Shown here: in pieces, positions 1 to 61,224 of the stretch
Layout of the letters: each line of letters opens with the position of its first letter
How positions within the stretch are numbered: position 1 is the first letter of the stretch
From: Escherichia coli
GTDB lineage: Bacteria > Pseudomonadota > Gammaproteobacteria > Enterobacterales > Enterobacteriaceae
Direction: 5' to 3' (one strand)
Assembly (NCBI RefSeq): GCF_003334315.1
Contig: NZ_QOWR01000020.1
Length of the DNA: 64,000 nt
Program-made: the position numbers and the translations under genes
Notes under the pieces: model-generated
Told to the model about the DNA's origin: nothing
Database searches by the model: none
Seen by the model: the letters and a program-made list of their open reading frames with translations, nothing else

Positions 1-222
1 GCCGGAATTGCCGCTTCCAGTTCCGCAGGGGCCGCGGTAGCGACACCTGTGCTGATTGCAGAAATGGTGCCTGCGTTTAAACCGATGGCTCCGGCAGCAA
101 CTTCGCTGGTAGCGACGGCGGTCATTGTGACTTCGATTCTGGTGCCAATTCTTACCTCTATCTGGTCACGTAAAGTCAAAGCCAGAGCAGCGAAAATCGA
201 AATTTTAGGTATGGTGAAATAA
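1..222 (+). CDS. kdgT: 2-keto-3-deoxygluconate permease, 3' end only (5' end lies outside the window)
   Basis: Open frame from position 1 (codons in phase 1) to TAA at 220-222; hydrophobic C-terminus ...KIEILGMVK matches KdgT; synteny upstream of yiiM. Confidence 0.75.
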
Positions 223-370
223 ACCTGCTTCCTTAATCCCCACAGCCGGATGAACTAACGTTCGTCCGGTTTGCTATTGAGTTCCTGCCTGGATACTTAC
301 CGCGAAAACAGCACGCCTGACATAAAATAAATATGGTCTAATGGGGAAATTTCTCGTGGAGAGGGAACAG

Positions 371-1045
371 ATGCGATATCCGGTTGATGTATACACAGGC
401 AAGATTCAGGCTTATCCCGAAGGCAAACCCAGCGCAATTGCTAAAATCCAGGTTGATGGTGAGTTGATGCTGACGGAGCTGGGGCTGGAAGGTGACGAGC
501 AGGCGGAGAAAAAGGTTCACGGCGGGCCAGACAGAGCGCTGTGTCATTATCCTCGTGAGCATTATCTCTACTGGGCGCGGGAATTTCCGGAACAGGCGGA
601 GTTGTTTGTTGCGCCTGCGTTTGGTGAAAACCTCTCAACCGACGGCCTCACGGAAAGTAATGTTTATATGGGCGATATTTTCCGCTGGGGAGAGGCATTA
701 ATTCAGGTCAGCCAGCCGCGCTCGCCTTGCTATAAACTCAATTACCATTTTGATATCAGCGATATAGCGCAGTTGATGCAAAACACAGGTAAGGTGGGGT
801 GGTTGTATAGCGTGATAGCGCCAGGGAAAGTGTCTGCGGACGCGCCGCTGGAGTTGGTTTCCCGTGTCAGCGATGTGACCGTGCAGGAGGCTGCCGCCAT
901 CGCATGGCATATGCCGTTTGATGACGATCAGTATCACCGTTTACTCTCCGCTGCCGGGTTATCGAAAAGCTGGACGCGAACGATGCAAAAGCGCCGACTG
1001 AGCGGCAAGATCGAAGATTTTTCCCGCCGGTTGTGGGGAAAATAA
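371..1045 (+). CDS. yiiM: MOSC-domain protein YiiM (224 aa)
   Basis: ORF-track frame 341..1045; start trimmed to the ATG giving MRYPVDVYTGK. Length and sequence match YiiM. Confidence 0.88.
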   Translation: MRYPVDVYTGKIQAYPEGKPSAIAKIQVDGELMLTELGLEGDEQAEKKVHGGPDRALCHYPREHYLYWAREFPEQAELFVAPAFGENLSTDGLTESNVYMGDIFRWGEALIQVSQPRSPCYKLNYHFDISDIAQLMQNTGKVGWLYSVIAPGKVSADAPLELVSRVSDVTVQEAAAIAWHMPFDDDQYHRLLSAAGLSKSWTRTMQKRRLSGKIEDFSRRLWGK

Positions 1046-1056
1046 CCCCCGGAGTG

Positions 1057-1139
1057 TAGGCCTGATAAGACGCTATCAGCGTCGCATCAGGCATCCTGCT
1101 CAAATGCCGGATGCGGCGTAAACGCCTTATCCTGCCTAC
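1057..1139. repeat. REP (repetitive extragenic palindrome) pair
   Basis: Inverted copies of the GCCGGATGCGGCGTAAACGCCTTATC / GTAGGCCTGATAAGACGC REP consensus in the yiiM-cpxA intergenic region. Confidence 0.75.
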
Positions 1140-1150
1140 AAATGCGGAGT

Positions 1151-2524
1151 TTAACTCCGCTTATACAGCGGCAACCAAATCACCAGCCGTAAACCGCCCA
1201 GCGGGCTGTCTTCTGCCTTCACCCAGCCACGATGCTGCTGAATGGCGGTTTCAACAATCGCCAGCCCCAATCCTGTACCGCCAGATTCACGATCGCGTGC
1301 TTCATCGGTCCGATAGAACGGACGGAAAATCTGTTCGCGATCTTCCGGGCTAACGCCAGGACCATCGTCGTCCACCGTAATGGTGATACCGTCTTTATCT
1401 ACCGCAAAGCCCACTTCAATCTTCGTATGGGAATAACGCAGAGCATTACGAACAATGTTTTCCAGCGCACTTTCCAGGGCGTTCGGATTGCCGTACAGCG
1501 GCCACGGCCCAGGCGGGAAGTTAACTGTCAACGACTTGCCCATTTGCTCGGCTTCGAACGCCGCGTTATCCAGCACTTCACTCCACAACTGATTGGCTTT
1601 GATGGTCTCGCTAACCAGCGCGTTTTTTTGCTGATTACGTGACATCACCAACAGGTCGTTGATCATGCTGTCCAGACGTTGCGCTTCGGTTTCAATACGC
1701 TCCAGTTCCTTGCTTTCACCGCTACGACGGCGCAGTAACGCCGTACCCAGTTGCAGACGCGTCAGCGGGGTGCGCAGCTCGTGAGAGATATCAGAAAGCA
1801 GACGCTGCTGGGAGGTCATCATGCGCTCCAGCGCGGTGACCATCTGGTTAAAACTGGCACCTGCGGCAAGGAATTCCTGTGGCCCCGCTTCCAGTTCCGG
1901 GTGCTGGCGTAAGTTTCCCTGGGCAACTTCATCGGCAGCGTTTTTCAGCTTACGCGCCGGTTTTGCCAGACTCCAGGCCAACCACAACAGCAGCGGCGTA
2001 CTGACCAACATGGTGACAATCAGCAGTAATAGCGGGCGGTCAAACAGTAAGTTAATGAAATCGGATTGAGAACTGCTGGCCGGACGAATCAGATAAAGTT
2101 GGTAATTATCTTCGCCATCACGCACGGAGAACGGACCGACCAGTTCCACGCGGCCATACTTTTTCTTCTGCGGATGATCGGCGTTATCGGCCTGACCAAT
2201 AAAGTTACGAATGATCTGCATTTCGCTGCGTTCAGCGCCGATCACGCGGCCTTCGGTGGTCACCAATAATAAACGCTGTCCTGGCGGTGCCCACTTATCA
2301 ATCGCCCGAAACAGACGCCGCCACCACATTAAATCGTTGGGCGGATCGTTCGCCAGCTCCGCTTCGACATGCTGCTCAATCATCAGCCCCTGACGCTGTT
2401 CGCTATCCAGAAGCTCGGTCATCTGGCGTGAATCGAGCTTGGGTAACATCAAAACCAACATCAACACCAGCGCCAGCGTCAGCCAGAAGATGGCGAAGAT
2501 GCGCGCGGTTAAGCTGCCTATCAT
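1151..2524 (-). CDS. cpxA: Envelope-stress sensor histidine kinase CpxA (457 aa)
   Basis: Full ORF; N-terminal membrane segments; H-box ISHELRTPLTRL; start overlaps cpxR stop (ATGA). Confidence 0.97.
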   Translation of the reverse strand: MIGSLTARIFAIFWLTLALVLMLVLMLPKLDSRQMTELLDSEQRQGLMIEQHVEAELANDPPNDLMWWRRLFRAIDKWAPPGQRLLLVTTEGRVIGAERSEMQIIRNFIGQADNADHPQKKKYGRVELVGPFSVRDGEDNYQLYLIRPASSSQSDFINLLFDRPLLLLIVTMLVSTPLLLWLAWSLAKPARKLKNAADEVAQGNLRQHPELEAGPQEFLAAGASFNQMVTALERMMTSQQRLLSDISHELRTPLTRLQLGTALLRRRSGESKELERIETEAQRLDSMINDLLVMSRNQQKNALVSETIKANQLWSEVLDNAAFEAEQMGKSLTVNFPPGPWPLYGNPNALESALENIVRNALRYSHTKIEVGFAVDKDGITITVDDDGPGVSPEDREQIFRPFYRTDEARDRESGGTGLGLAIVETAIQQHRGWVKAEDSPLGGLRLVIWLPLYKRS

Positions 2525-3219
2525 GAAGCAGAAACCATCAGATAGCCGCGACCACGCAAGGTTTTAAACCACGGGTGACCATCTTTACGATCCGGCAGTT
2601 TACGACGCAGGTTGGAAATGTGCATATCGATAGCGCGGTCGAAAGGCGTCAGGCGTTTGCCCAGCACTTCCTGGCTTAAATGTTCACGGGAAACCACCTG
2701 ACCCAGATGCTGTGCCAGCAAATAGAGCAGGGTAAACTCAGTGCCGGTTAACTCCAGCGTTTGCCCGTCGAAGCTGGCTTCCTGACGGCCTGGATTCAGC
2801 ACTAAGGCATCAACTTCCAGTGTCGGTGAACCGTTGTCGTTGTTTTGCTGTTGCTCGCTCCAGTGCGAACGGCGCAGGATCGCGCGAATACGTGCCACCA
2901 GCTCACGATCATTAAATGGTTTCGGGAGATAGTCATCTGCGCCCAGCTCAAGGCCGAGAACGCGATCAAGTTCACTGCCGCGCGCCGTCAACATAATGAC
3001 AGGCGTCTGGTGTGTCTGGCGAAGTGCTTTTAATGTGTCGATACCATTTTTCTTCGGCATCATTACGTCAAGCAAAAGTAAATCAATGCTGTCGTCCAGA
3101 AGATCAAGCGCCTGTTCCCCATCGTGGGCAACAATCACGTTGAAGCCTTCCATCTCGAGCAGCTCCTTTAATAGGGAAGTCAGCTCTCGGTCATCATCAA
3201 CTAACAGGATTTTATTCAT
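2521..3219 (-). CDS. cpxR: OmpR-family response regulator CpxR (232 aa)
   Basis: Receiver domain (MNKILLVDDD...LLLLDVMMP) plus winged-helix C-terminus; 4-bp overlap with cpxA. Confidence 0.97.
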   Translation of the reverse strand: MNKILLVDDDRELTSLLKELLEMEGFNVIVAHDGEQALDLLDDSIDLLLLDVMMPKKNGIDTLKALRQTHQTPVIMLTARGSELDRVLGLELGADDYLPKPFNDRELVARIRAILRRSHWSEQQQNNDNGSPTLEVDALVLNPGRQEASFDGQTLELTGTEFTLLYLLAQHLGQVVSREHLSQEVLGKRLTPFDRAIDMHISNLRRKLPDRKDGHPWFKTLRGRGYLMVSAS

Positions 3220-3274
3220 TGTTTAAATACCTCCGAGGCAGAAATTACGTCATCAGACGTCGCTAATCCATGAC

Positions 3275-3289
3275 TTTACGTTGTTTTAC
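3275..3289. promoter_or_regulatory. CpxR box (GTAAA-N5-GTAAA) in the divergent cpxRA/cpxP control region
   Basis: Plus strand TTTACGTTGTTTTAC is the reverse complement of GTAAAACAACGTAAA, a perfect direct-repeat CpxR consensus; a further GTAAA lies at 3320-3324. Confidence 0.6.
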
Positions 3290-3368
3290 ACCCCCTGACG
3301 CATGTTTGCAGCCTGAATCGTAAACTCTCTATCGTTGAATCGCGACAGAAAGATTTTGGGAGCAAATG

Positions 3369-3869
3369 ATGCGCATAGTTACCGCTGCCGTCATGGCCTC
3401 AACGCTGGCAGTCAGTTCATTAAGCCACGCTGCTGAAGTCGGTTCAGGCGATAACTGGCATCCGGGTGAAGAACTTACGCAGCGCAGTACGCAGAGCCAT
3501 ATGTTCGACGGCATAAGTTTAACCGAACATCAGCGTCAGCAGATGCGAGATCTTATGCAACAGGCCCGGCACGAACAGCCTCCTGTTAATGTTAGCGAAC
3601 TGGAGACAATGCATCGCCTTGTCACCGCAGAAAATTTTGATGAAAACGCTGTGCGCGCACAGGCAGAAAAAATGGCGAATGAGCAAATTGCTCGTCAGGT
3701 TGAGATGGCAAAAGTCCGCAACCAAATGTATCGCCTGTTAACGCCGGAGCAGCAAGCGGTTTTAAACGAGAAACATCAACAACGAATGGAGCAGTTGCGC
3801 GACGTGACGCAATGGCAAAAAAGTTCATCGTTGAAGCTATTGAGTAGTAGCAACTCACGTTCCCAGTAG
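3369..3869 (+). CDS. cpxP: Periplasmic Cpx pathway inhibitor/adaptor CpxP (166 aa)
   Basis: ORF-track 3366..3869 has tandem ATGs; second ATG gives [21 protein letters not shown] signal peptide; [12 protein letters not shown] helical motifs. Confidence 0.95.
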
Positions 3870-3877
3870 TAAACCCT

Positions 3878-3936
3878 GTTTTCCTTGCCATAGACACCAT
3901 CCCTGTCTTCCCCCACATGATGTGGGGGTTTTTTTT
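3878..3936 (+). ncRNA. cpxQ: CpxQ-like 3'-UTR-derived sRNA including the cpxP intrinsic terminator
   Basis: About 60 nt after the cpxP stop ending in hairpin CCCCCACAT/GATGTGGGGG (3910-3928) plus T8; the processed cpxP 3' end is the described CpxQ sRNA. Exact 5' end is not determinable from sequence. Confidence 0.5.
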
Positions 3937-4017
3937 ATCCTCAATTTGCCTGCTGCTTAATGCATTGCAGATGATTTGCTTCCGTTATACTAGCGTCAGT
4001 TGATAGCGGGAGTATTT

Positions 4018-4920
4018 ATGAATCAATCTTATGGACGGCTGGTCAGTCGGGCGGCGATTGCTGCGACGGCGATGGCTTCGCTGCTATTGCTGATTAAAAT
4101 TTTTGCATGGTGGTATACCGGGTCGGTGAGTATTCTCGCCGCGCTGGTGGATTCGCTGGTGGATATCGGCGCGTCGTTGACGAATTTATTGGTGGTGCGA
4201 TATTCCCTGCAACCTGCCGACGATAATCACTCGTTTGGTCACGGTAAAGCTGAGTCCCTCGCGGCGCTGGCGCAAAGTATGTTTATCTCCGGTTCGGCAC
4301 TATTCCTGTTTTTGACGGGTATTCAACATCTGATATCTCCAACACCGATGACAGATCCAGGCGTCGGGGTTATCGTGACAATTGTGGCGCTAATTTGTAC
4401 GATTATCCTTGTCTCGTTTCAGCGTTGGGTGGTGCGCCGGACGCAAAGCCAGGCGGTGCGGGCTGATATGCTACATTACCAGTCTGATGTTATGATGAAC
4501 GGCGCAATTCTGCTGGCGCTGGGGTTGTCCTGGTACGGCTGGCATCGCGCCGATGCTCTGTTTGCATTGGGAATCGGCATCTATATTTTATATAGCGCGT
4601 TACGCATGGGATATGAGGCGGTACAGTCATTACTGGATCGCGCATTACCTGATGAGGAACGGCAAGAAATTATTGATATCGTGACTTCCTGGCCGGGTGT
4701 TAGCGGCGCTCACGATCTTCGCACGCGGCAGTCAGGGCCGACCCGCTTTATTCAGATTCATTTGGAAATGGAAGACTCTCTGCCTTTGGTTCAGGCACAT
4801 ATGGTGGCGGATCAGGTAGAGCAGGCTATTTTACGGCGTTTTCCGGGATCGGATGTGATTATCCATCAGGACCCCTGTTCCGTCGTACCCAGGGAGGGTA
4901 AACGGTCTATGCTTTCATAA
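4018..4920 (+). CDS. fieF: Cation diffusion facilitator (Fe/Zn efflux) FieF/YiiP (300 aa)
   Basis: Start trimmed to ATG giving [15 protein letters not shown]; six TM segments then cytoplasmic domain. Confidence 0.95.
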
Positions 4921-5100
4921 TCAGTATAAAAGAGAGCCAGACCCGCATTTTGTGTATAAAATACCGCCATTTGGCCTGACCTGAATCAATTCAGCAGGAA
5001 GTGATTGTTATACTATTTGCACATTCGTTGGATCACTTCGATGTGCAAGAAGACTTCCGGCAACAGATTTCATTTTGCATTCCAAAGTTCAGAGGTAGTC

Positions 5101-6063
5101 ATGATTAAGAAAATCGGTGTGTTGACAAGCGGCGGTGATGCGCCAGGCATGAACGCCGCAATTCGCGGGGTTGTTCGTTCTGCGCTGACAGAAGGTCTGG
5201 AAGTAATGGGTATTTATGACGGCTATCTGGGTCTGTATGAAGACCGTATGGTACAGCTAGACCGTTACAGCGTGTCTGACATGATCAACCGTGGCGGTAC
5301 GTTCCTCGGTTCTGCGCGTTTCCCGGAATTCCGCGACGAGAACATCCGCGCCGTGGCTATCGAAAACCTGAAAAAACGTGGTATCGACGCGCTGGTGGTT
5401 ATCGGCGGTGACGGTTCCTACATGGGTGCAATGCGTCTGACCGAAATGGGCTTCCCGTGCATCGGTCTGCCTGGCACTATCGACAACGACATCAAAGGCA
5501 CTGACTACACTATCGGTTTCTTCACTGCGCTGAGCACCGTTGTAGAAGCGATCGACCGTCTGCGTGACACCTCTTCTTCTCACCAGCGTATTTCCGTGGT
5601 GGAAGTGATGGGCCGTTATTGTGGCGATCTGACGTTGGCTGCGGCCATTGCCGGTGGCTGTGAATTCGTTGTGGTTCCGGAAGTTGAATTCAGCCGTGAA
5701 GACCTGGTAAACGAAATCAAAGCGGGTATCGCGAAAGGTAAAAAACACGCGATCGTGGCGATTACCGAACATATGTGTGATGTTGACGAACTGGCGCATT
5801 TCATCGAGAAAGAAACCGGTCGTGAAACCCGCGCAACTGTGCTGGGCCACATCCAGCGCGGTGGTTCTCCGGTGCCTTACGACCGTATTCTGGCTTCCCG
5901 TATGGGCGCTTACGCTATCGATCTGCTGCTGGCAGGTTACGGCGGTCGTTGCGTAGGTATCCAGAACGAACAGCTGGTTCACCACGACATCATCGACGCT
6001 ATTGAAAACATGAAGCGTCCGTTCAAAGGCGACTGGCTGGACTGCGCGAAAAAACTGTATTAA
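5101..6063 (+). CDS. pfkA: 6-phosphofructokinase I (320 aa)
   Basis: Start trimmed to [23 protein letters not shown]; GGDGS motif ([12 protein letters not shown]). Confidence 0.97.
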
Positions 6064-6119
6064 TGATTTCGGAAAAAGGCAGATTCCTTTAGCCTGAAAC
6101 CGATGACAGAAGCAAAAAT

Positions 6120-6217
6120 GCCTGATGCGCTTCGCTTATCAGGCCTACGTGAATTCTGCAATTTATTGAATTTACAAATTTTTGTAGGCCGGATAAGGCG
6201 TTCGCGCCGCATCCGGC
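6120..6217. repeat. REP pair (BIME-like)
   Basis: GCCTGATGCGCTTCGCTTATCAGGCCTAC and GTAGGCCGGATAAGGCGTTCGCGCCGCATCCGGC in inverted arrangement downstream of pfkA. Confidence 0.75.
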
Positions 6218-6246
6218 ATCGATAAAGCGCACTTTGTCAGCAATAT

Positions 6247-6272
6247 GAGGCGGATTTCTTCCGCCTTTTTTA
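6247..6272 (+). terminator. Intrinsic terminator downstream of pfkA
   Basis: Hairpin AGGCGG-ATTTCTT-CCGCCT followed by TTTTTT. Confidence 0.6.
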
Positions 6273-6383
6273 ATCCCCCAACATATACCCACAAGTTATA
6301 GCCAATCTTTTTTTATTCTTTAATGTTTGGTTAACCTTCTGGCACGCTTTGCTCATCACAACACAACATAAGAGAGTCGGGCG

Positions 6384-7373
6384 ATGAACAAGTGGGGCGT
6401 AGGGTTAACATTTTTGCTGGCGGCAACCAGCGTTATGGCAAAGGATATTCAGCTTCTTAACGTTTCATATGATCCAACGCGCGAATTGTACGAACAGTAC
6501 AACAAGGCATTCAGCGCCCACTGGAAACAGCAAACTGGCGATAACGTGGTGATTCGTCAGTCACACGGTGGTTCAGGCAAACAAGCGACGTCGGTAATCA
6601 ACGGTATTGAAGCTGATGTTGTCACGCTGGCTCTGGCCTATGACGTGGACGCAATTGCGGAACGCGGGCGGATTGATAAAGAGTGGATCAAACGTCTGCC
6701 GGATAACTCCGCACCGTACACTTCCACCATTGTTTTCCTGGTGCGTAAGGGCAATCCGAAGCAGATCCATGACTGGAACGATCTGATTAAACCGGGTGTT
6801 TCGGTGATCACGCCTAATCCGAAAAGCTCTGGTGGCGCACGCTGGAACTACCTGGCTGCCTGGGGCTACGCGCTGCATCACAACAACAACGATCAGGCAA
6901 AAGCACAGGATTTTGTTCGGGCACTGTATAAAAACGTCGAAGTTCTGGATTCTGGCGCGCGCGGCTCCACTAACACTTTTGTCGAGCGCGGGATTGGCGA
7001 TGTACTGATCGCCTGGGAAAACGAAGCTCTGCTGGCAGCGAATGAACTGGGGAAAGATAAATTCGAAATCGTCACGCCGAGTGAGTCTATCCTCGCAGAG
7101 CCAACCGTGTCGGTGGTCGATAAAGTGGTCGAGAAAAAAGGTACTAAAGAGGTGGCGGAAGCCTACCTGAAATATCTTTACTCGCCAGAAGGTCAGGAAA
7201 TTGCAGCGAAAAACTACTATCGTCCGCGCGATGCTGAGGTGGCGAAAAAGTACGAAAATGCGTTTCCAAAGCTGAAGTTATTCACCATTGATGAAGAGTT
7301 CGGCGGCTGGACGAAAGCGCAAAAAGAGCATTTTGCTAACGGCGGTACGTTCGATCAGATCAGCAAACGCTGA
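6384..7373 (+). CDS. sbp: Periplasmic sulfate-binding protein (329 aa)
   Basis: Signal peptide [19 protein letters not shown]; length and sequence match Sbp. Confidence 0.95.
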
Positions 7374-7393
7374 TTTCTCCAGGATAATTATCA

Positions 7394-7426
7394 AACCCGG
7401 TGGTTTCTCGCGACCGGGTTTTTTAT
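7394..7426 (+). terminator. Intrinsic terminator downstream of sbp
   Basis: Hairpin AACCCGGT...ACCGGGTT followed by TTTTTAT. Confidence 0.65.
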
Positions 7427-7479
7427 TTGTCACGATTTTGCGTTACCCTTGCATCTCTTTGAGGTACAGGGAAAAAAAG

Positions 7480-8235
7480 ATGAAAAAAGCGGGTCTTCTT
7501 TTTTTGGTGATGATAGTTATCGCCGTTGTGGCTGCCGGTATTGGTTACTGGAAATTAACCGGTGAAGAGTCGGATACATTACGTAAGATTGTCCTTGAGG
7601 AATGTTTGCCCAATCAGCAGCAAAATCAAAATCCTTCGCCATGTGCGGAAGTCAAACCCAATGCCGGATACGTGGTTTTAAAAGATCTTAATGGCCCACT
7701 GCAATATCTGTTGATGCCAACGTATCGTATTAACGGAACTGAAAGTCCTTTGTTGACCGATCCTTCAACGCCGAACTTCTTTTGGTTGGCCTGGCAGGCG
7801 CGTGATTTTATGAGCAAAAAATACGGTCAGCCGGTTCCCGATCGCGCGGTTTCTTTGGCGATCAACTCCCGCACCGGGCGTACGCAAAACCATTTTCATA
7901 TTCATATCTCTTGTATTCGTCCTGATGTGCGCGAACAACTGGATAAAAATCTGGCGAACATCAGCAGCCGCTGGTTGCCACTGCCAGGTGGTTTGCGCGG
8001 GCATGAATACCTGGCGCGTCGGGTAACGGAAAGCGAACTGGTACAACGCAGCCCATTTATGATGCTGGCAGAAGAAGTACCTGAGGCGCGGGAACATATG
8101 GGAAGCTACGGGCTGGCGATGGTGCGGCAGAGTGATAATTCGTTTGTGTTGCTGGCGACACAACGAAATCTACTGACACTTAACCGTGCTTCAGCCGAGG
8201 AAATTCAGGATCATGAGTGTGAGATTTTGCGTTAA
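7480..8235 (+). CDS. cdh: CDP-diacylglycerol pyrophosphatase (251 aa)
   Basis: ORF-track 7288..8235 extends upstream across the sbp terminator; start trimmed to ATG giving [20 protein letters not shown]. Confidence 0.92.
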
Positions 8236-55863: not shown

Positions 55864-55980
55864 AAAAAAAAGCGGATCCTGGAGATCCGCAAAAGTTCAC
55901 GTTGGCTTTAGTTATTCGAGTTGAGAAACTCTCGAAACGGGCAGTGACTTCAAGGGTTAAAAGAGGTGCCGCTCCGTTTC
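55864..55980 (-). ncRNA. oxyS: Oxidative-stress small RNA OxyS (~109 nt)
   Basis: Minus strand reads GAAACGGAGCGGCACCTCTTTTAACCCTTGAAGTCACTGCCCGTTTCGAGAGTTTCTCAACTCGAATAACTAAAGCCAACGTGAACTTTTGCGGATCTCCAGGATCCGCTTTTTTTT, matching OxyS as I recall it, including its terminator hairpin; divergent from oxyR. Confidence 0.88.
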
Positions 55981-59755: not shown

Positions 59756-60856
59756 TTACTTCGCGGTCAGTAATACGCCGCACTCCATATGGTGCGTGTA
59801 GGGGAACTGATCAAACAGAGCCAGACGTTCGACCTTGTGCGTCTGGCTTAATGTTTCCAGATTCTTGCATAACGTTTCCGGGTTACAGGAGATGTACAAA
59901 ATACGCGGATACGCCTGCACCATTTTCTCGGTTTCACTGTCCAGACCGCTGCGCGGTGGGTCGACAAAAATGGTTTCGCACTGATAACTCTTTAAGTCGA
60001 TCCCTTGCAGGCGGTTAAACTCGCGCACACCATTCATCGCCTGAGTAAATTCTTCTGCCGCCATACGAATAATTTGTACGTTATCAATATGGTTAGCTGC
60101 GATGTTGTATTGCGCAGCAGCAACCGACGGCTTAGCGATTTCGGTGGCTAATACCCGATCAAAATTACGCGCCAGCGCTAATGAAAAGTTACCGTTGCCG
60201 CAGTACAGCTCCAGTAAATCGCCTTTTGAGCCTTTGGTTACGTCCAGCGCCCATTCCAGCATCTGAATATTCATCGCCGCGTTCGGCTGGGTAAAGCTGT
60301 TTTCTACCTGACGGTAGATCATCTCTTTCCCTGCGACCGGCAGACGCTCGTCGATGTAATCTTGATCCAGCTCGATTTTGGTTTTCGTTGCCCGACCAAT
60401 CAGATGCACATTCAGATTCTGCGCGCGCAGTGCATCGCGCAGGGCCTCCGCTTCCTGACGCCACTCATCATCCAGCTTCTTATGGTATAGCAGGGAAACC
60501 ACCGCCTGATTACTCAGCGTGGTGAGGTAATCAATCTGGAACAACTTGTGGCGCAGAACGGGATTATTACGCACACCCGCAATCATCGCCGTCATCAACT
60601 GGTTGATAAGTTCACTGGCGGCGGGGAAGCTATCCACGCGGATGCGGCTTTTGGTTTGTTGATCGAAAATGATGTGATACAGGTCATCGCCATCGTGCCA
60701 GATGCGGAACTCCGCGCGCATCCGGTAATGACTGACCGGCGAGCGAAACACTTCCGGAACCAGGTCAGAAAACGGTGCCATCATACTTTGCAAACGTACC
60801 ACTTTTTCGGCTAACTGCGCTTCATACTGTTCTGTTGGAAGGTGTTCGGGGGTCAT
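59756..60856 (-). CDS. trmA: tRNA (uracil54-C5)-methyltransferase (366 aa)
   Basis: [29 protein letters not shown]; SAM-dependent methyltransferase fold. Confidence 0.96.
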
Positions 60857-60984
60857 GATGTATCCTGAAAAATTAAAGTACGCGGCGATTGTAGGGATTG
60901 CTCATCAGATGTCCAGATCTTGATGAATTCCTATTTGTGAGCTACGTCTGGACAGTAACTTGTTACAACCTGTAGCATCCACTT

Positions 60985-61224
60985 GCCGGTCCTGTGAGTT
61001 AATAGGGAATCCAGTGCGAATCTGGAGCTGACGCGCAGCGGTAAGGAAAGGTGCGATGATTGCGTTATGCGGACACTGCCATTCGGTGGGAAGTCATCAT
61101 CTCTTAGTATCTTAGATACCCCTCCAAGCCCGAAGACCTGCCGGCCAACGTCGCATCTGGTTCTCATCATCGCGTAATATTGATGAAACCTGCGGCATCC
61201 TTCTTCTATTGTGGATGCTTTACA
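60985..61224 (+). promoter_or_regulatory. btuB 5' leader carrying the adenosylcobalamin riboswitch
   Basis: Leader GCCGGTCCTGTGAGTTAATAGGGAATCCAGTGCGAATCTGGAGCTGACGCGCAGCGGTAAGGAAAGGTGCG... with B12-box-like AAGCCCGAAGACCTGCCGGCC at ~61124-61146; ends at the btuB ATG. Confidence 0.85.

Follow-up and report, generated by a model that had tools for sequence, protein, structure and literature searches.

The btuB leader at 60985-61224 in the 64,000-nucleotide stretch of Escherichia coli DNA analyzed here (the window) is, by all features of its sequence, the canonical and already known adenosylcobalamin (AdoCbl) riboswitch, and was previously annotated in RefSeq genomes with the same sequence. This ordinary E. 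coli leader very probably precedes a btuB gene that became a mosaic by homologous recombination with a deeply divergent BtuB lineage. The features of the locus are as follows.

60949-60978, plus strand: promoter-like hexamers TGGACA-18 nt-TAGCAT, sigma-70-like, from a consensus scan only; same bases in K-12
60985-61224, plus strand: btuB leader (5′UTR), 240 nt, with AdoCbl riboswitch aptamer and expression platform sequestering the ribosome binding site (RBS); 100% identical to K-12
61225-63108, plus strand: btuB coding sequence, 627 amino acids and stop codon, very probably a mosaic allele; NCBIfam BtuB equivalogs, WP_000591385.1 in strain CP53
61225-61329, plus strand: E. coli-type 5′ end of btuB, very probably retained, encoding signal peptide and TonB box DTLVVTANRF; identical to K-12
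61330-62997, plus strand: divergent btuB core, very probably imported, encoding the remainder of the plug and nearly the whole barrel; 51-68% nucleotide identity to K-12
62998-63108, plus strand: E. coli-type 3′ end of btuB, very probably retained, overlapping the start of murI (ATG at 63053); 100% identical to K-12

An Rfam scan of the whole window returned one match to the cobalamin riboswitch family RF00174. It lies at 60970-61159 (+), spans the full model (1-189) and scores 87.0 bits (E 4.2e-20), with a gathering score of 31.5 bits. The match ends 66 nt 5′ of the btuB ATG on the same strand. The B12 box AGCCCGAAGACCTGCC at 61127-61142 (+) is the sole match to the consensus AGYCMGNAGNCCTGCC within the 64-kb window, where 0.03 matches are expected by chance. 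A transcription start at about 60985 is implied by the sigma-70-like site and places the ATG (61225) 240 nt downstream, in agreement with the -240 btuB leader used experimentally in PMC11162775. The RBS-occlusion mechanism of the K-12 btuB leader is described in the same study (PMC11162775), and an RBS-occluding expression platform is assigned to the window purely from sequence identity, as its leader and the initial 105 nt of btuB are those studied experimentally in K-12. Strain CP53 is 100% identical to the window over 60860-63200, and PGAP labels the same bases "cobalamin riboswitch" and "btuB" in that genome. The first-pass annotation had described the leader as a canonical btuB AdoCbl riboswitch including a B12 box and had proposed a covariance-model search with the Rfam cobalamin family; this description is borne out, and the search gave a significant match. 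Elsewhere in the window, matches reaching the gathering score of other Rfam families were located at 55871-55980 (-), 19871-19928 (-), 24540-24592 (+), 1059-1136 (-), 6141-6182 (-) and 25572-25613 (+). They comprise OxyS, the ClpQY (hslVU) promoter element, the L31 ribosomal protein leader and the REP-like naRNA4 and ES036, all of which are expected at these K-12 positions.

Alignment with K-12, represented by strain RP437, displayed zero differences over the 808 nt from 60522 to 61329. This stretch takes in the end of trmA, runs on through the intergenic region and the 240-nt leader, and extends 105 nt (35 codons) into btuB. The first difference is found at 61330 (btuB nucleotide +106), and 28 differences occur in the next 90 nt. 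Over the core (61330-62997) a semi-global alignment gave 61.5% nucleotide identity to K-12, ranging from 51 to 68% by segment (67.6% for +106 to +210, 59.9% for +211 to +600 and 51-52% further in). From about +1723 identity is back at 96-100%. Dense divergence stops at 62946, two further donor-type bases are present at 62979 and 62997, and from 62998 to the btuB stop codon at 63108, and beyond the murI start at 63053, the sequences are 100% identical. The transitions between the near-identical flanks and the divergent core are abrupt. Elsewhere the 64-kb window aligns collinearly to K-12 with 99.0-99.4% identity, and the btuB core is the sole block that megablast cannot place. These data confirm the earlier observation of a K-12-like leader ahead of a divergent coding region. 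They also support a junction at the beginning of the ORF, although it had been placed within the first ~100 nt and the first difference lies slightly past that limit. At 50932-51281, near ppc and argE, several offset BLAST matches to K-12 of 105-225 nt were obtained, indicating a short tandem or otherwise repeated element with a period of ~123 nt, whose copy register may differ from that in K-12.

The btuB product passes the NCBIfam models NF007926 (1042.7 bits, cut-off 836) and TIGR01779 (664.7 bits, cut-off 599.7). Compared with the K-12 protein it shows 57% amino acid identity (627 versus 614 amino acids). The signal peptide and the following QDTSPDTLVVTANRF (TonB box) are the same as in K-12 BtuB, and the divergence extends throughout the barrel and over part of the plug. 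The G+C content of the whole coding sequence is 46% versus 50% in K-12. The gene encodes a genuine BtuB ortholog belonging to another lineage. Cobalamin transport and a role as receptor for E colicins and BF23-/T5-like phages would accordingly be its expected functions, judging from orthology and the presence of the riboswitch.

We examined the distribution of this allele in 5426 complete E. coli genomes, all of which contain the btuB locus. The window core was present at an identity of at least 99% in 283 genomes and at 90-99% in 5 more, while 373 genomes gave an alignment over at least 80% of the core. An assembly artefact was rejected because the same core occurs in 283 independent complete genomes. 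The intergenic region and leader (368 nt) were at least 99% identical in 5270 of the 5426 genomes. The leader can therefore be called K-12-like in the sense that it is identical to that of K-12, but it is not K-12-specific. A 301-nt query across the 5′ junction was at least 95% identical in 285 genomes, so this junction is common to essentially all carriers of the allele. The 3′ boundary is less uniform: strain 88-3493 is already of the K-12 type at 62979 and 62997, two positions at which the window has the donor base.

The remaining ~85 of the 373 genomes carry a third E. coli class, exemplified by EC5654, whose protein is 75% identical to the window BtuB and 57% to K-12 BtuB. In EC5654 (NZ_CP095086.1, 1396-3234) the leader is 99.6% identical and divergence begins at about +106 to +108; the nearest relatives of this BtuB type are found in Huaxiibacter, Lelliottia and Citrobacter sp. 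(87-88% amino acid identity). Escherichia sp. MOD1-EC7003 (3001-4854) represents a fourth btuB class, whose protein is 83% identical to that of the window allele. There the leader is 97.5% identical to that of E. coli and the coding sequence diverges from about +53, mainly at third codon positions, which shows that the DNA sequence of the initial 105 nt of btuB can vary. Leader identity to K-12 is 97.5-100% across all classes, and the coding sequence diverges from +106, from +106 to +108 or from about +53. In only 2 of the 5426 genomes did the best leader match fall below 95% identity. A divergent native leader in one genome (84.5% identity) was considered and rejected, the match being a second, island-borne riboswitch-btuB copy.

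Further riboswitch-btuB modules and interrupted genes were encountered in the course of this survey. STEC1587 (NZ_CP129259.1, 3467-5575) possesses a second module of cobalamin riboswitch and btuB on an island, adjoining iha and a sulfatase and porin gene; the BtuB of this module shows 79% identity to K-12, and its leader ~83% identity to that of the window. The searches gave matches at as many as 3 sites in a genome, and at 2 sites on plasmids. Such paralogous modules appear to be mobile. Insertion sequences split btuB in some of the complete genomes, in GPEC1258 (4366-7546) an IS3-family element after codon 29 and in PEC403 (1-2999) an IS4 element, which fits recurrent loss of a phage and colicin receptor. 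Open-access full text yielded no account of E. coli btuB as a mosaic gene or as a set of allele classes, which is weak evidence of absence, and BtuB variants are not discussed in the phage-receptor preprint examined.

To trace the core outside Escherichia, species-representative genomes of about 100,000 species were searched. The nearest BtuB proteins are 83-86% identical in amino acid sequence and belong to Citrobacter portucalensis, Citrobacter sp. MGH106, Kluyvera spp., Klebsiella spallanzanii and Salmonella enterica subsp. diarizonae. Their btuB genes show 76-79% nucleotide identity to the core, as compared to 61.5% (57% at the amino acid level) for K-12. No near-identical sequence outside Escherichia, and none above 86% amino acid identity, was found among these representatives. 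The BtuB proteins of these organisms are of the same lineage as the core, and each gene is preceded by a cobalamin riboswitch of its own, with murI after it and then 16S rRNA on those fetched contigs that are long enough. The loci differ from the window in the core, as given above, and in the leader, which is 78-90% identical to the window leader. With such values none of these genera qualifies as the direct donor. More broadly, the window BtuB shares 62-86% of its amino acids with the other enterobacterial genera retrieved and 48-50% with Providencia, whereas K-12 BtuB stands at much the same distance (52-58% identity) from every BtuB retrieved, Providencia included.

The core was also found in a different chromosomal background. 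In strain SCPM-O-B-8794, labelled E. coli (NZ_JAATUR010000040.1), the trmA and murI flanks are 89-95% and the core is 97-99% identical to the window. The strain may represent a divergent Escherichia lineage, as suggested by its flanks, and the higher identity of the core indicates that the allele has moved between Escherichia lineages. The core is thus closer to other lineages than to the K-12 allele and occurs across backgrounds. If the SCPM-O-B-8794 version resembles the donor, the crossovers are located at 61312-61329 on the 5′ side, in an 18-nt run common to both types, and at 62998-63041 on the 3′ side.

From these results we infer that ~1.67 kb of btuB (61330 to about 62997) was replaced by homologous recombination with a divergent BtuB lineage, leaving the strain's own E. 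coli sequence on both sides, namely the leader with the initial 105 nt of the gene, and its final 111 nt, which overlap murI. Selection on the phage and colicin receptor would keep the btuB alleles distinct, and recombination with ordinary E. coli DNA would restore the flanks up to the points at which similarity falls off. In line with this, the mean identity between K-12 and 15 non-Escherichia loci is 78-93% over +1 to +105 and 64% over +106 to +150, while the last 111 nt of btuB are 92-98% conserved in most genera compared and 88% in Siccibacter. The boundaries coincide with the positions at which similarity between BtuB lineages collapses, at the 5′ end just past the TonB box and at the 3′ end shortly ahead of the conserved C-terminal strands and the overlap with murI. 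As similarity is high enough for recombination only in the stretches bracketing the core, the sharp junctions are most simply understood as the limit of flank restoration by recombination, an idea that draws on three allele classes only.

The 5′ junction lies in a part of the ORF that is involved in regulation in K-12. AdoCbl control of K-12 btuB hits translation initiation first and then mRNA via elements in the ORF (PMC11162775). These are an attenuator at +18 to +48 and an OmrA/Hfq site around +71 to +94 (PMC11162775). In addition, robust mRNA-level repression and Rho-dependent termination need sequence between +81 and +210 (PMC11162775). The corresponding positions in the window are listed below.

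61242-61272, plus strand: attenuator, +18 to +48 (position from PMC11162775); identical to K-12
61295-61318, plus strand: OmrA pairing site, +71 to +78 and +85 to +94 (positions from PMC11162775); identical to K-12
61305-61434, plus strand: equivalent of the Rho-dependent region, +81 to +210 (PMC11162775); +81 to +105 kept, +106 to +210 replaced

The statement that the regulatory RNA was retained consequently holds for the aptamer, the expression platform, the attenuator and the OmrA site, but not for +106 to +210 of the Rho-dependent region. In this region, 105 of 130 nt have been replaced by sequence that is 67.6% identical to K-12. The C/G ratio is 1.44 versus 1.30 in K-12, and 21 YC dimers are present in both. 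Rho loading on the replaced, still C-rich and G-poor stretch is plausible from its composition. We assume that B12 regulation is unchanged in the window allele: on AdoCbl binding, the riboswitch would hide the RBS and btuB mRNA would drop through early termination inside the ORF.

It is conceivable, if unlikely, that the 5′ boundary is kept by selection for an intact regulatory module of leader, attenuator and OmrA site, beyond the limit set by homology. The window and EC5654 types diverge at +106 to +108 and the MOD1-EC7003 class, the third of the divergent types, at about +53; none of the boundaries enters the leader, and functional elements extend to about +94 (PMC11162775). Moreover, of the only 2 genomes with a best leader match below 95%, the one examined carries a paralogous island copy. 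On the other hand, each of the 20 related loci (20/20) has a full-scoring riboswitch of its own that ends 66 nt from the ATG, so that a leader acquired by import would be expected to function as well. The drop in similarity at +106 is seen between genera irrespective of E. coli, and the Rho-dependent region from +106 to +210 has not been preserved. Selection on the boundary is therefore not needed to explain the junction; it is compatible with the homology limit, and the two ideas are not mutually exclusive.

A different possibility, which we likewise hold to be rather improbable, is that the allele swap altered regulation. The replaced +106 to +210 segment would weaken or change Rho-dependent termination, leaving B12 repression to act at translation and less at the mRNA. 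This idea is based on the requirement of K-12 mRNA repression for +81 to +210 (PMC11162775) and on the extent of the replacement in this very region. It is countered by the preserved C-rich, G-poor character tied to Rho loading, by the loose sequence requirements of Rho sites and by the persistence of the allele in about 5% of genomes. Minimum free energy folds of -240 to +210 differ globally between the alleles and give no indication of pairing between the new sequence and the leader, with 5.8 expected pairs here versus 25.9 in K-12. A 450-nt equilibrium fold is a poor proxy for a riboswitch folding during transcription, and these values are taken as uninformative.

As a more speculative and quite improbable extension, Escherichia btuB might behave as a replacement cassette with a fixed boundary. 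Divergent alleles (57-75% amino acid identity among the three E. coli classes) would be exchanged behind a near-invariant leader, with 5′ boundaries piling up at +53 to +108, just past the point where the mapped cis-regulatory elements end. With most of the K-12 Rho-dependent region lost in the swap (+106 to +210), the allele classes could then differ in the B12-dependent lowering of btuB mRNA. If so, differences at the mRNA level would come on top of those in phage and colicin recognition.

Recombination itself is called into question by the idea of divergence in place, with strong diversifying selection acting on the coding region and purifying selection holding the riboswitch constant. Diversifying selection is plausible for a phage and colicin receptor, but the identity to K-12 extends to the non-riboswitch spacer, trmA and murI, the transitions are abrupt, plug and barrel are divergent throughout, the core is nearer to btuB of other genera than to K-12, and the same core is present in a divergent Escherichia lineage. 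The abrupt transitions, the foreign affinity and the sharing across lineages effectively refute this extremely improbable explanation.

One further feature overlaps the leader on the opposite strand.

60931-61509, minus strand: 192-amino-acid ORF antisense to the leader and the btuB 5′ end; spurious, open frame only

The ORF is present as described in the first-pass annotation, which had attributed it to the structured RNA. It has no match in NCBIfam or Pfam and is without PGAP annotation in the identical sequence of CP53 or in K-12. Its start codon is an ATG in the window and a TTG further in for K-12, the N-termini of the two alleles being unrelated. In MOD1-EC7003, whose leader is 97.5% identical and whose riboswitch still reaches 85.6 bits, the frame is broken by a 2-nt deletion, and in Citrobacter, Salmonella and Kluyvera it is open for only 35-92 codons. 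That it is a real gene is hardly credible and was rejected: the frame is open in all E. coli-type sequences examined (165-197 codons), but it lacks family matches, annotation and a conserved start and is frameshifted in MOD1-EC7003, all of which identifies it as a chance ORF. RNA structure is not demonstrated to be its cause, and half of the ORF lies opposite the btuB coding sequence.

For riboswitch biology the locus offers little that is new, as the textbook btuB riboswitch is unchanged. With regard to the receptor, the BtuB encoded by ~7% of complete E. coli genomes has only 57% identity to that of K-12. Siphophages and E colicins use BtuB as a major receptor, and the divergent alleles therefore matter for the prediction of phage and colicin host range. 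In addition, the btuB alleles constitute a natural test of how far riboswitch control at the mRNA level depends on the coding sequence downstream of +105.

Compared with the K-12 btuB riboswitch, the window riboswitch is the same in sequence, B12 box, distance to the ATG and genomic position (trmA-btuB-murI). There is no difference in the riboswitch itself; the window differs downstream, where the ORF has been replaced from +106 on. At E. coli outer-membrane protein and antigen loci, mosaic alleles are maintained by recombination and selection. The btuB locus of the window resembles such mosaic surface and receptor genes in its divergent block, its sharp boundaries, its flanks of species-consensus sequence and the existence of several allele classes, and allelic replacement at btuB is an ordinary pattern for surface-receptor genes. 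What sets it apart from them is the 5′ boundary, which is located inside the ORF, just 3′ of a cis-regulatory RNA that reaches into the coding sequence.
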